A program made the translations under genes and the position numbers. From Eledone cirrhosa (lineage: Eukaryota), in assembly GCA_964016885.1 (NCBI GenBank), contig OZ024740.1:234360001-234424000 (forward strand): a DNA stretch of 64,000 bases, read 5' to 3'. Under the pieces are notes generated by a model that did no database searches, was not told where the DNA came from, and saw only the letters and a list, made by a program, of their open reading frames with translations. This document shows, piece by piece, positions 32,653 to 51,600 of this stretch (position 1 is the stretch's first letter; each line of letters opens with the position of its first letter).

Positions 32653-32855
32653 AGTTTTAATATAGATGAGATTCTACAGGACTAGAACTGTTTCATTCAT
32701 TAGAAATCATCAGGAATCTGAGATTCCTGATGATTTCTAATGAATGAAACAGTTCTAGTCCTGTAGAATCTCATCTATATTAAAACTGTTATACTCTGCT
32801 ATGTATTGAGTACCTTACTTACTGTGGTTACCTCCGATTCAACCCGGAATAACGT
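32653..32855 (+). ncRNA. Type I hammerhead ribozyme within a 135-bp palindrome (Penelope pLTR-like) between (TA)n tracts
   Basis: AGATTC-CTGATGA(32727)-TTTCTAATGAAT-GAAA-CAGTTCTAGTCCTG-TA^GAATCT; mirror copy at 32653-32719. Confidence 0.8.
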
Positions 32856-32974
32856 ATATATATATATATATATATATATATATATATATATATATATATA
32901 TATATATATATATATATGCCATTCATGAAAAATGATATATTAGTCAATATATCATTTTTCATGAATGGCATATT

Positions 32975-35900
32975 TTAAACGCATTTCCGAAGACAAAATG
33001 AGCTTAACTCTAGTCTATGGCTTGAAAAAATTATTATGCATGATTCATTGGTACATTATCATTGGTTTATTTTAAATTATAATTGTTCAACAAGTGATCT
33101 AAAGCATCTTTAAAGTCCTGAACAGTAGCATCCGTTTTGCAGCTGACTTTCTCCAGATAAACCCTCAGATTTCGCACGTAAGTATCCACATCTAGTTTCC
33201 GATAATTCCTTTTCAGTTAGAAAATGTCGCTGGTTTTTGGTATCGATAGCGAAGTGTCCCTTGCATATCTAATTTCTAAATACAACCTTTCTATTTTATC
33301 TGTTTCCGAAGCTGTATCGCTCTCCATATATGTATCTATCTCCTCCTTTTTAGATAATCAAGATCCTTGTTTCGTCGCTTTTCGGTGGCGATATTGGCAT
33401 TTTCCTTGGTTGCGAGGCCTTCGCGTGTCAACTCCTCCTGTCTTACAGTCCATGCTTTCATAATTTCAGGTATTTGGCCGCCTTTTCTAACCAACTTCCT
33501 GTATTTGACGAAAGATCCCGACTCATTTTCGATCAGGTCTTTAGCCTTCATCTTTACTTGAGATGAAGAAGCGGCGGCCAATTGTTTCGCGCCTCGGCGA
33601 GTCAAATCGTAATTAATAAAGCCCACGCCTCTTTCTGAATCGAGGTTGTGTATAGGCGCTTTTTCAAGTTTCGCAGTGTCCATCTTTGATAAGGCGTATG
33701 GAAAATCGTGAGCTTCTCCAAATCCGAATATGTCGCTCTTTTGCTTCTGGAAGCCATCACCCAACTTCGGTAAGAGCACCTTTATGACTTTGAGTACATC
33801 ATCTCTCAACTCGCTGGTCGCCGCATTTATCGTATCGCACATTTCGTCATCATATCGGATGTCTGAAACGTTCTTCTGATACGAAACTCAAAGCTGGTAG
33901 GTCGGTAGATAATAATTTGCTGGGATCAATATGTATCAAATCGTCGTAGATCTTATTGAATGCTATCGCCAGTTTGGGATAGTCTGTCGTTTGTGCAGTC
34001 GTGAGTGATAAGAATGGCTCTACCAAATGTAATCCGATGATAGCTCCACTGCAGAACAACACCACACCCGGAAGAAGTCCATATTCATAAAACAGCGCAC
34101 TCTGCACGCCAACTGGTTAGTTACATGCTCGAATTTCTGAACGTAAGCAGCTACATCGTCTAGGTGATACAGCGTAACTGCACAAGTTATGGTAAGCCGA
34201 TTGAACCGTTCATCCTTCAATGAAACGGACTTGTTTTTGCGTGGATGTATAAACGAGTCAAAGTCATTCGCCTTGTTCCAAATTGTGTGGTCGAAATCAT
34301 GGCATATCAATCTTGTTATACAGTCGAGGGCTTGCTCTGTGACACTTGAGGCATTAGTAGTTGCATTCACTAGAAAACTCGAGAAGATTTTGTCTCTACC
34401 AATTTCGTTTTCAATTTCAGGCCATAGTTTCGTCAACACCCTGTTGAACATGAGGGAAGGATGAACATTACAGAAAAGGGGGTCTGGAACGTGTTCAGTC
34501 TCTAGTTTTTCAGCTAGGATCGCCTCAACCTCGAAATTGTGTGATGTCTGATCAGTTATCACAAAATCAATTTTTTCGAAGTGCAATTTGACGGATACCT
34601 CACTTGCAGCTTCTAGTATGGACAAAACAGCCAATTTTAAGCCAGCCAAGTTCTGTCGCGATTCAGACGCTATCGGTAACGTAGGAAGCGCTCTGTACTT
34701 TCCACCAACTGTCATGCCCTGTACACTGAAAGATCCAACACCTTGTTTTTTGGACCCGTCGTCGTGATAGGTAATCACGCTGTTGGTATCTAAAGACATG
34801 ATTTCCTTAACTATGCAGTCCAGTGCCATCATTTCAATACTTTTTCCGCTCTCTCGAACATTACGTTTATGAGGTAAAGTATCGAGATCGATCACGTCGA
34901 TTTCGTTATGTAACTTCTATTTCCTGTCAAACAATTTATTTCCAACAACAACTATCGCGGCATTAGCCTGATTTTCAGACATATGAGTTATGGATTTCAG
35001 TTCATCGATAGTTTCGTATATTTCTGGCTTTATTATCCTCTCAGTGATTCGTAGGTGTCTGAAACATGGGGGTAGAAGATCATCTCCGAAGTCCAATGAT
35101 GCCACAACATTACGCTTCTTAGGAACCGACGGAGCACTGTCAGATGAGAAATCAACGTCCGCAACTTGTTCGTTGTCTTCGGTAGAGTCCGAAGACACAT
35201 CCATAAATAATTGGATCATTTCTTGCTCTTTTTCAGCTCTCTGCCATCTGTCTTTCCAAAGATTCAATGTCACTTTTCCTCCTCCTCATTGTCTCTTCCT
35301 ACTTTTTATCTATGAAATTCTCACAAAACATTTCACGGTCCTTGCGCTGATCATGAAGGAATTCCCACTCATCGTCCGTCATGCTGACCCCGTGGTAATT
35401 TTCTAGTCTCTTCCTCACTACGGCGTTCTCGCAGAATATATCAAATATATAATCAACTTCGTTGTTAAAGTTTTTAACCTCCTCCAAATTTTTTAACCTT
35501 CTCCTGTTCTTCCTCGTTTGATATAGTCGTTGAAATTCTGCATATAATTGAAGTATTTTCCGTTTTATCGTCACTGTATATACGTTACAGAAAATCCAGT
35601 GTTCTGATAGCACATATAAAAGGGACAATGCTGCTGCTTCTTTTGATCTCTGACTCTGGCCTGCTCGTGATGGTCGCATTAGATACATCATGTTCGTGAT
35701 AACATTCCTTTTTGTGGATAGAAGTCCATTGGGGAATCCTACAGTTTCCACATATTCCAGTTCACCGAGAATCTTCTTCGCGGACGATAGCAATGGTAAT
35801 TTTGTGTGCCTGTATGCCATTTCAAAAATTGGACGTTAATCTGAAAGTACGAAAGATATGGTGCATGTGAGATCACGGAGAAATACAGGTTCGGCTAAAG

Positions 35901-49024: not shown

Positions 49025-49062
49025 ATATATATATATATATATATATATATATATATATATAT

Positions 49063-51600
49063 ATATATATGTGAATATAGACATAGAATATTCGAAAATA
49101 TTCTGTATGTTTATAATAAACATTTTGAAGACCTAATCGCTATAGAATAGAATACGTCACGTATTACAATTAGATTCTCGATAAAAGCAAGGGAAGTAAT
49201 CTACGCGTTTCATTCTTGTTAGAAATCATCAGGACTACATATCCAGTGCTTTTATCGAGAATGACACAGCTAGAGACTTATAGAATACTTAGCTGTGTAC
49301 AGGAACGTGACGTATTCTATTCTATAGCGATTAGGTCTTCAAAATGTTTATTATAAACATACAGAATATTTTCGAATATTCTATGTCTATATTCACATAT
49401 ATATCGCTATTTCAGAGCATTTATTCCAATTTCTAATTTCTGCCGGACCGGCAACCGCTCTTTCAAACCAGTTCCTGTACACAGCTAAGTATTCTATAAG
49501 TCTCTAGCTGTGTCATTCTCGATAAAAGCACTGGATATGTAGTCCTGATGATTTCTAACAAGAATGAAACGCGTAGATTACTTCCCTTGCTTTTATCGAG
49601 AATCTAATTGTAATACGTGACGTATTCTATTCTATAGCGATTAGGTCTTCAAAATGTTTATTATAAACATACAGAATATTTTCGAATATTCTATGTCTAT
49701 ATTCACATATATATCGCTATTTCAGAGCATTTATTCCAATTTCTAATTTCTGCCGGACCGGCAACCGCTCTTTCAAACCAGTTCCTGTACACAGCTAAGT
49801 ATTCTATAAGTCTCTAGCTGTGTCATTCTCGATAAAAGCACTGGATATGTAGTCCTGATGATTTCTAACAAGAATGAAACGCGTAGATTACTTCCCTTGC
49901 TTTTATCGAGAATCTAATTGTAATACGTGACGTATTCTATTCTATAGCGATTAGGTCTTCAAAATGTTTATTATAAACATACAGAATATTTTCGAATATT
50001 CTATGTCTATATTCACATATATATCGCTATTTCAGAGCATTTATTCCAATTTCTAATTTCTGCCGGACCGGCAACCGCTCTTTCAAACCAGTTCCTGTAC
50101 ACAGCTAAGTATTCTATAAGTCTCTAGCTGTGTCATTCTCGATAAAAGCACTGGATATGTAGTCCTGATGATTTCTAACAAGAATGAAACGCGTAGATTA
50201 CTTCCCTTGCTTTTATCGAGAATCTAATTGTAATACGTGACGTATTCTATTCTATAGCGATTAGGTCTTCAAAATGTTTATTATAAACATACAGAATATT
50301 TTCGAATATTCTATGTCTATATTCACATATATATCGCTATTTCAGAGCATTTATTCCAATTTCTAATTTCTGCCGGACCGGCAACCGCTCTTTCAAACCA
50401 GTTCCTGTACACAGCTAAGTATTCTATAAGTCTCTAGCTGTGTCATTCTCGATAAAAGCACTGGATATGTAGTCCTGATGATTTCTAACAAGAATGAAAC
50501 GCGTAGATTACTTCCCTTGCTTTTATCGAGAATCTAATTGTAATACGTGACGTATTCTATTCTATAGCGATTAGGTCTTCAAAATGTTTATTATAAACAT
50601 ACAGAATATTTTCGAATATTCTATGTCTATATTCACATATATATCGCTATTTCAGAGCATTTATTCCAATTTCTAATTTCTGCCGGACCGGCAACCGCTC
50701 TTTCAAACCAGTTCCTGTACACAGCTAAGTATTCTATAAGTCTCTAGCTGTGTCATTCTCGATAAAAGCACTGGATATGTAGTCCTGATGATTTCTAACA
50801 AGAATGAAACGCGTAGATTACTTCCCTTGCTTTTATCGAGAATCTAATTGTAATACGTGACGTATTCTATTCTATAGCGATTAGGTCTTCAAAATGTTTA
50901 TTATAAACATACAGAATATTTTCGAATATTCTATGTCTATATTCACATATATATCGCTATTTCAGAGCATTTATTCCAATTTCTAATTTCTGCCGGACCG
51001 GCAACCGCTCTTTCAAACCAGTTCCTGTACACAGCTAAGTATTCTATAAGTCTCTAGCTGTGTCATTCTCGATAAAAGCACTGGATATGTAGACCTGATG
51101 ATTTCTAACAAGAATGAAACGCGTAGATTACTTCCCTTGCTTTTATCGAGAATCTAATTGTAATACGTGACGTATTCTATTCTATAGCGATTAGGTCTTC
51201 AAAATGTTTATTATAAACATACAGAATATTTTCGAATATTCTATGTCTATATTCACATATATATCGCTATTTCAGAGCATTTATTCCAATTTCTAATTTC
51301 TGCCGGACCGGCAACCGCTCTTTCAAACCAGTTCCTGTACACAGCTAAGTATTCTATAAGTCTCTAGCTGTGTCATTCTCGATAAAAGCACTGGATATGT
51401 AGTCCTGATGATTTCTAACAAGAATGAAACGCGTAGATTACTTCCCTTGCTTTTATCGAGAATCTAATTGTAATACGTGACGTATTCTATTCTATAGCGA
51501 TTAGGTCTTCAAAATGTTTATTATAAACATACAGAATATTTTCGAATATTCTATGTCTATATTCACATATATATCGCTATTTCAGAGCATTTATTCCAAT
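49063..51600 (+). ncRNA. 310-bp tandem array of minimal type I hammerhead units (non-LTR retrozyme-like): inverted partial unit 49063-49306 plus 7.4 direct units
   Basis: CTGATGA at 49545, 49855, 50165, 50475, 50785, 51095 and 51405; motif GTAGTC-CTGATGA-TTTCTAACAAGAAT-GAAA-CGCG-TA^GATTAC; antisense copy at 49196-49238; (TA)n on both sides. Confidence 0.92.

Follow-up and report, generated by a model that had tools for sequence, protein, structure and literature searches.

Type I hammerhead ribozymes with a short palindromic helix III and a long or variable helix II are known from Penelope-like elements (PLEs), where many divergent families occur per genome, mostly as single truncated copies, and where high family variability and a dimer model have been described (Cervera & de la Pena 2014, PMC4209133). 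Palindromic stem/loop III sequences have also been read as dimer-forming across many repeat-type hammerheads (Perreault et al. 2011, PMC3088659, Fig. S8 legend). PLEs of the Hydra clade, defined by DKT, CxCX5C, CxxC and CxH motifs, insert into (TA)n, carry a 3' hammerhead and have inverted 5'-truncated arms, and File S2 of the study that describes them tabulates differing helix III palindromes among Hydra families of one genome (Craig et al. 2021, PMC8557442). Metazoan retrozymes without long terminal repeats (non-LTR) are low-GC, non-coding tandem units of 150-450 bp with one canonical type I hammerhead each (PMC7229834; bioRxiv 10.64898/2026.07.22.740005). A partnership between retrozymes and PLEs has already been proposed, and the 2026 preprint bases its case on phylogeny and co-occurrence, with local tandem amplification discussed as well (bioRxiv 10.64898/2026.07.22.740005). 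All comparisons below refer to the covered parts of these sources. The hammerheads of PLEs and retrozymes, the palindromic helix III and cleavage by dimers are already in print, and Lunse et al. (2016/17) reportedly described PLE hammerheads with a small palindromic helix III.

Here we analyze hammerheads in a 64,000-nt stretch of the Eledone cirrhosa genome (assembly GCA_964016885.1, 3.0 Gb; contig OZ024740.1, positions 234,360,001 to 234,424,000), hereafter the window, and name each motif by its position there in kb (Table 1). A preliminary description of positions 32,653 to 51,600 had presented a hotspot of unrelated hammerheads whose helix III is almost always a different palindrome, and had suggested that each palindrome could act as a family-specific dimerisation code. 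We find at a probability of about 0.8 that type I hammerhead folds end (TA)n-inserted PLEs and retrozymes, and that the palindromic helix III most likely pairs two tandem copies of one transcript into an RNA-cutting double hammerhead.

Compensatory change in palindromic helix III

A CUGANGA plus GAAA core with a UH triplet is present at 32.7, 39.7, 41.4, 44.2, 46.0, 46.9, 48.9 and 49-51 kb, and helices I and II pair and covary among relatives, which identifies the motifs as type I hammerheads. They exceed chance, because a loose template gives 15 sites in the window compared to a mean of 0.4 (maximum 3) in 100 shuffles. An Rfam scan returned no hammerhead among the best 150 of its 193 matches (E up to 1), which were microsatellite and hairpin noise. 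Judged by sequence, the motifs are genuine and well supported hammerheads of a known kind, and are predicted ribozymes. The eight helix III strings listed in the preliminary description are present where it placed them, as is the CTAG-containing loop at 32.7 kb, which also has an inverted copy. Seven of the eight palindromes lie in register with the core, helix I and helix II; the one at 40.4 kb is off register, in an eroded copy from an old repeat family. The 44.2-kb string belongs to the minus strand, a point absent from the preliminary description. The sole pairing helix I register at 40.4 kb gives helix III ACACGTGTAT, a non-palindromic 10-mer, and CACGTG-T is kept in none of 11 fetched relatives (70-86% identity, one matching the downstream part only). 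Within the window, in-register helix III takes nine sequences, no two alike.

We scanned 140 evenly spaced 10-kb stretches of the genome with a strict descriptor and obtained 114 matches compared to 3-6 in controls. Eleven rows from one A/T-rich satellite (L174) were removed as false positives before family and density counts, and extrapolation from the remaining 103 matches in 1.39 Mb gives about 2 x 10^5 motifs genome-wide in dozens of families. Helix III is a Watson-Crick palindrome in 73 of the 114 matches, and in 88 when G-U pairs are allowed, compared to 0-1 among the 3-6 control matches, a strong genome-wide enrichment. With the satellite rows removed, helix III is self-complementary in 21 of 28 clusters, a clustering that oversplits a few families. 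In one family with 7 census matches (among them L033:3086, L053:9214, L056:1837 and L059:4839), helix III is AGGACT or AGAACT, so that pairing of two copies would leave tandem mismatches (G-A or A-A).

Particularly informative are the four central positions of an 8-mer, necessarily loop in a monomer. An unbiased pattern for the 41.4-kb family gave 3,187 matches, 2,044 with CAATTG and 901 with CGRYCG, the latter being CGATCG or CGGCCG throughout the 100 matches listed. On a midpoint-rooted tree of 31 copies, built with helix III masked and with four 5'-truncated copies excluded, CGATCG changed to CGGCCG once and, separately, to CAATTG once; both switches are double substitutions inside the would-be monomer tetraloop. 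The 44.2-kb family carries both ATGCGCAT and ATGTACAT. In a family with 17,975 genome-wide pattern matches, to which the 48.9-kb motif is related, the G-U variant ATATGTAT occurs 11,692 times versus 38 for its A-C mirror. The earlier suggestion that sequence changes while self-complementarity is kept is thus borne out, and dimer pairing is its best explanation, because the compensatory changes and the G-U/A-C asymmetry affect positions that are unpairable within one strand. The hammerheads here match those of PMC4209133 in fold, helix III, helix II, family diversity and truncation, and add to them within-family compensatory changes at central pairs counted on a tree.

By nearest-neighbor energies, the double hammerhead is favored by 9-20 kcal/mol for nine of ten motifs and by 3.8 kcal/mol for the worn 38.1-kb copy. 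Helix III of 6-8-mers in a monomer is predicted at +2.4 to +6.0 kcal/mol, and 6-nt palindromes would be left with one base pair (+6 kcal/mol). With a helix III of 6-8 nt too short for closure within a single strand, the palindrome of copy A would pair with that of copy B, and helix I would likewise be exchanged between the two. The double hammerhead would cut a tandem transcript into units, which would likely be circularised; the PLE reverse transcriptase would then likely copy them, starting at a fixed internal position, and yield tandem arrays with an inverted arm. Any self-complementary sequence would work in such a dimer, so lineages could drift through G-U intermediates to differing palindromes, and specificity between families would rest mostly on helix I and on sharing one RNA.

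Several points weigh against this overall explanation. Helix III can close within one strand in the 32.7-kb type (4 bp and an 8-nt loop, -1.4 kcal/mol) and in the 46.0-kb type (3 bp, +0.4 kcal/mol), which makes dimer-only cleavage of these two doubtful by our model. Cleavage of minimal PLE hammerheads is poor even in dimeric form (PMC4209133), no activity was seen in 8 of 9 Xenopus dimers (bioRxiv 10.64898/2026.07.22.740005), and in invertebrate retrozymes, hammerheads whose helix III consists of 2 bp and a tetraloop cleave well in vitro as monomers (PMC7229834). Most copies in the window are single or back-to-back and, having no same-strand partner, were probably dead on arrival. Seven of the 28 census clusters are not fully self-complementary, one of them having a G-U majority, and the ratio of G-U variant to A-C mirror may reflect one ancestral event. 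Our energies leave out tertiary contacts and concentration, Pfam and PDB searches gave no match to the open reading frame (ORF) of the 44.2-kb PLE, and the 32-52 kb interval exceeds the average TA-rich block about 2.5-fold (7 loci versus about 2.6).

If the hammerheads instead acted mainly as monomers with a minimal hairpin, their palindromic loops being leftovers or by-products, the self-closing 32.7- and 46.0-kb types and the in vitro activity of retrozyme monomers would be accounted for. However, the compensatory changes and the G-U/A-C asymmetry at unpairable loop positions would then go unexplained, and the 6-nt palindromes would have to function with their single base pair, so we consider monomer action quite unlikely. 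A further proposal is that the palindromes are maintained as DNA, where they would be bound or nicked, or that they are chance features of AT-rich repeats. Several are indeed AT-rich, such as ATATATAT, and resemble the (TA)n target, and the 0.4 chance matches per window from the loose template suffice for a case like that at 40.4 kb. Yet the palindromes keep their place between GAAA and UH, within folds whose helices I and II covary, the strand-asymmetric tolerance of G-U suits RNA pairing, and the sequences are too diverse for a single protein site. This proposal is largely refuted, and we give it very little chance of being correct.

Palindromes, helix I and family specificity

A selected, family-specific code that prevents cutting by or with other families would assign each family one palindrome, unshared. 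The nine in-register sequences of the window do all differ, but the 41.4-kb family uses three palindromes (CAATTG, CGATCG and CGGCCG), and ACTAGT, ACGATCGT, ACAATTGT and ATATATAT are each common to unrelated families. Nine hand-picked 8-mer families contain five identical palindrome pairs compared to 0.6-1.1 from random draws, an excess for which shared ancestry is possible and which is the opposite of an orthogonal code. Deep splits retain one palindrome, with CGATCG copies averaging 83% identity and spanning both sides of the midpoint root. The mapping of palindromes to families is many-to-many, the same pattern that the published table shows among Hydra families (PMC8557442).

Strand topology, built explicitly, indicates that each core of a double hammerhead would combine helix I strands of both copies, the 5' strand from one and the 3' strand from its partner, and helix I, being exchanged, would be part of recognition. 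We compared 30 representatives in 435 pairs, using crude thresholds and including two worn representatives that inflate the helix III passes: both helices fail in 360 pairs, helix I alone blocks 39, helix III alone discriminates 26, and 10 pass at both. On this model, helix I probably supplies most of the family specificity. Helix I does not, as had been stated, differ in every family, since that of the 48.9-kb hammerhead nearly equals that of the 44.2-kb one.

The palindrome alone could possibly separate sister subfamilies only. Where sisters share helix I but not the palindrome, their heterodimers are predicted to be 6-11 kcal/mol less stable than the homodimers: +0.4 versus about -10 kcal/mol for CGGCCG with CAATTG, -4.4 versus about -12 kcal/mol for CGGCCG with CGATCG, and +2.4 versus about -7 kcal/mol for ATGCGCAT with ATATATAT. 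This loss of cross-pairing comes automatically with any compensatory change, and no selection for discrimination is needed to explain it. A selected family code is in our view very improbable. We also find it unlikely that compensatory palindrome change among helix-I-sharing sisters (CAATTG/CGATCG/CGGCCG; ATGCGCAT versus ATATATAT) is a self/non-self switch against trans cutting by co-expressed relatives, with the retrozyme arrays also recording direct rolling-circle insertion by a Hydra-clade PLE enzyme. A literature search covering papers outside subscription found none that proposes a palindrome code or makes a heterodimer claim, and the passages of PMC3088659 covered contain no family-code claim.

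Carrier elements and retrozyme arrays

By its sequence, the 44.2-kb motif is linked to a predicted Hydra-clade reverse transcriptase/endonuclease ORF. The truncated PLE extends over about 44200-45950 and is inserted in (TA)n, its hammerhead ending about 30 nt ahead of the (TA)n run. The endonuclease fragment gave 61,173 first-look genome candidates, of which 150 were scored. Relatives of the PLE have open frames of 715-760 aa that carry DKT (in three of four long frames), the reverse transcriptase motif YRDD, CxCX5C, CxxC and CxH, with the endonuclease at the C-terminal end, and their ORF is colinear by eye with the published Hydra-1_Obim (PMC8557442 supplement). GIY-YIG is found in 26-38% of members among atlas look-alikes of the ORF. 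These PLEs thus share with the Hydra clade the C-terminal endonuclease and its motifs, the (TA)n insertion, the 3' hammerhead and the inverted 5'-truncated arms (PMC8557442). They differ in having RWI rather than the published RWK at the matching N-terminal place in two relatives (L237 and L239, one residue off), mostly even 6- or 8-mers in helix III rather than mostly odd 9-mers, and a 3' untranslated region of about 1 kb (PMC8557442). An apparent 5' hammerhead before the L237 ORF, belonging to another family, was considered as part of a mixed-palindrome element and rejected, as it had inserted separately and is bounded by (TA)n tracts.

The 41.4-kb family is non-coding and forms tandem units of 699-1009 bp in all six loci examined, which were picked for tandem pairs. 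A 170-bp tail copy of this family, 85% identical and without a hammerhead, also lies in the window (39915-40090 versus 41448-41619).

The retrozyme array at 49-51.6 kb has seven plus-strand ACGCGT hammerheads (49545-51405), of which the one at 51095 has a mutated helix I, and an inverted one. Cleavage is predicted after 49575 and every 310 bp thereafter, and the array ends in a 26-nt extension followed by (TA)n. The 310-bp unit is low in GC, has no frame of at least 90 aa and bears one canonical type I hammerhead, as in metazoan non-LTR retrozymes, and its length falls inside their published range (PMC7229834; bioRxiv 10.64898/2026.07.22.740005). A pattern search found 4,626 exact matches to the core genome-wide, and the circular unit is predicted to fold at -67.8 kcal/mol (z -4.4 versus 60 shuffles) with 60% of bases paired. 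Among sequencing runs, none listed as holding these sequences is recorded as RNA. Contigs from four runs of unknown kind span the unit, three as one 310-nt loop; tandem DNA yields the same result, and we set them aside as evidence on expression or circles.

We examined 13 arrays, namely that of the window, the first ten clusters of the 310-bp core pattern search and two from the census (window 49063-51600; L241-L250, L030 and L128), which reach 19 units. Two adjacent arms point apart in 10 of the 13. In all ten, one arm stops at unit position ~100, the internal AT run, and the other at 126-131; 5' ends are variable and nearly all 3' ends enter (TA)n. An inverted arm plus tail is the pattern described for PLE insertions (PMC8557442), and all ten two-armed arrays show this inversion-plus-tail signature. 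The fixed array ends lie ~140-165 nt beyond the cleavage site, consistent with a template that was circular or multimeric when copied. Compared to metazoan retrozymes as published (PMC7229834; bioRxiv 10.64898/2026.07.22.740005), the arrays here show the PLE signature directly, with inverted arm, fixed 3' ends, one-sided tail and (TA)n target.

Features of the window and wider implications

Table 1. Hammerheads and associated features of the window (positions count from its first letter).
Feature	Positions	Strand	Detail
Type I hammerhead of canonical size, CTAG centre; helix III 4 bp plus 8-nt loop	32719-32773	+	core 32727
Inverted 5' copy of the 32.7-kb hammerhead (PLE-style inverted arm), adjoining (TA)n	32669-32719	-	core 32713
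Two worn back-to-back hammerheads of the 32.7-kb type	38116-38211		cores 38160 (minus) and 38167 (plus)
Variant hammerhead, helix III ACAATTGT; ~50-nt tail, then (TA)n	38479-38566	+	CCGACGA core
Hammerhead, helix III ACGATCGT, helix II domain of 102 nt, helix I weakened	39589-39723	+	core 39596
Worn repeat-family member with core-like words, not counted as intact hammerhead	40400-40490	-	
Hammerhead, helix III ACGGCCGT, branched helix II of 97 nt	41315-41438	+	core 41319; helix I 4 bp
Hammerhead, helix III ATGCGCAT, at 3' end of 5'-truncated Hydra-clade PLE	44230-44300	-	core 44292
C-terminal GIY-YIG-type endonuclease fragment of the 44.2-kb PLE	45306-45860	-	CxCX5C, CxxC, CxH
Hammerhead with the odd palindrome ACCACTGGT as helix III; (TA)n follows a short tail	46018-46077	+	core 46025
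Hammerhead of canonical size, helix III ACTAGT, U-U at helix II base	46848-46890	+	core 46854
Intact hammerhead, helix III ATATATAT, absent from the preliminary description	48917-48982	+	core 48925
Inverted 5'-truncated arm of the retrozyme array, one hammerhead; stops at the unit's internal AT run	49063-49306	-	core 49232
Retrozyme array of 7.4 x 310-bp units, one hammerhead (ACGCGT) per unit	49305-51600	+	

The hammerheads sit 30-200 nt ahead of (TA)n, where they mark the 3' ends of Hydra-clade PLEs, of non-autonomous relatives and of the retrozyme array. Those at 44.2, 46.0 and 46.9 kb are intact, and helix I of the last covaries across relatives. In common with published animal retrozymes, hammerheads here show a U-U at the helix II base, as axolotl HHR_Amex2 does, and a 1-bp helix III with a palindromic tetraloop, as HHR_Amex1 does (PMC7229834; bioRxiv 10.64898/2026.07.22.740005). 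The weaker motifs at 38.5, 39.7 and 41.4 kb, which their relatives support, combine a core-proximal helix I of just 3-4 bp with helix II domains of 61-102 nt. At 39.7 kb, helix I consists of 3 bp, a mismatch and 3 bp, where 7-10 bp pair in relatives, and a shortened inverted copy without a core lies at ~38748 (minus). The CCGACGA core at 38.5 kb is a U4C variant found in most of 11 pattern-matched copies of a small family; an alternative core with an extra base on a (TG)n tract was discarded, as the tract is absent from relatives, which keep CCGANGA. Both U4C and U10.1-U11.1 variants have been noted before (PMC3088659). The worn plus-strand copy at 38167 has lost the triplet U. Helix II domains of 50-116 nt, sometimes branched, occur in several families (the 39.7- and 41.4-kb motifs; L023:6769 and L124:5599), unlike the PLE hammerheads described in PMC4209133. 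One long-helix-II family shows U3-A8 core covariation.

The hotspot does not hold at the 64-kb scale, where the window has 7 insertion-level loci compared to 5.1 expected from the same relaxed descriptor in the 1.39 Mb of samples (P about 0.28). It stands modestly at the 20-kb scale, as all seven loci lie within about 20 kb (P about 0.008, assuming independent blocks and with the interval chosen post hoc). Hammerhead counts correlate with (TA)n runs (rho 0.52); of 40 such runs in the window, 33 fall in 32-52 kb. The cluster is local clustering in a target-rich zone and no special locus, and would have arisen by independent insertion of each element into the (TA)n-rich stretch. Long inverted repeats centered on or flanked by (TA)n (41739-41862, 46480-47170, 47230-47395 and 47740-48160) are probably inverted arms of truncated insertions.

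Elsewhere, the window holds two arrays with extreme strand skew, one of 12-bp units over 12 kb (11368-23368) and one of 16-bp units over 2.8 kb (24183-27014), and broken frames of a gene or transposon at 33336-35835 (minus) that gave no Pfam match. Retrotransposon fragments of non-LTR type at 42938-43651, 58594-59537, 61602-61937 and 62938-63435, with weak zf-RVT matches only, are presumably of the restriction-like endonuclease type. Two fragments resemble long interspersed elements (55552-56869 and 29645-30121), one with a weak reverse transcriptase match and C2H2 zinc fingers. A many-copy repeat resembling short interspersed elements (7777-8191, 36606-36700, 39490-39590, 47845-48070 and 51987-52630) is, we assume, akin to octopod ones.

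Natural compensatory changes at pairs that can form only between copies offer evolutionary evidence for hammerhead dimers in vivo, against a background of low in vitro rates. The questions of which enzyme moves animal retrozymes, and of whether tandem arrays originate at insertion or by later amplification, are addressed directly by arrays that combine fixed ends and one-sided tails with inverted arms of the PLE type. With abundant motifs in dozens of families, this genome is good test material. If palindrome change among sister subfamilies did prove to be a self/non-self switch, the genome would hold a natural library of orthogonal dimer ribozymes.

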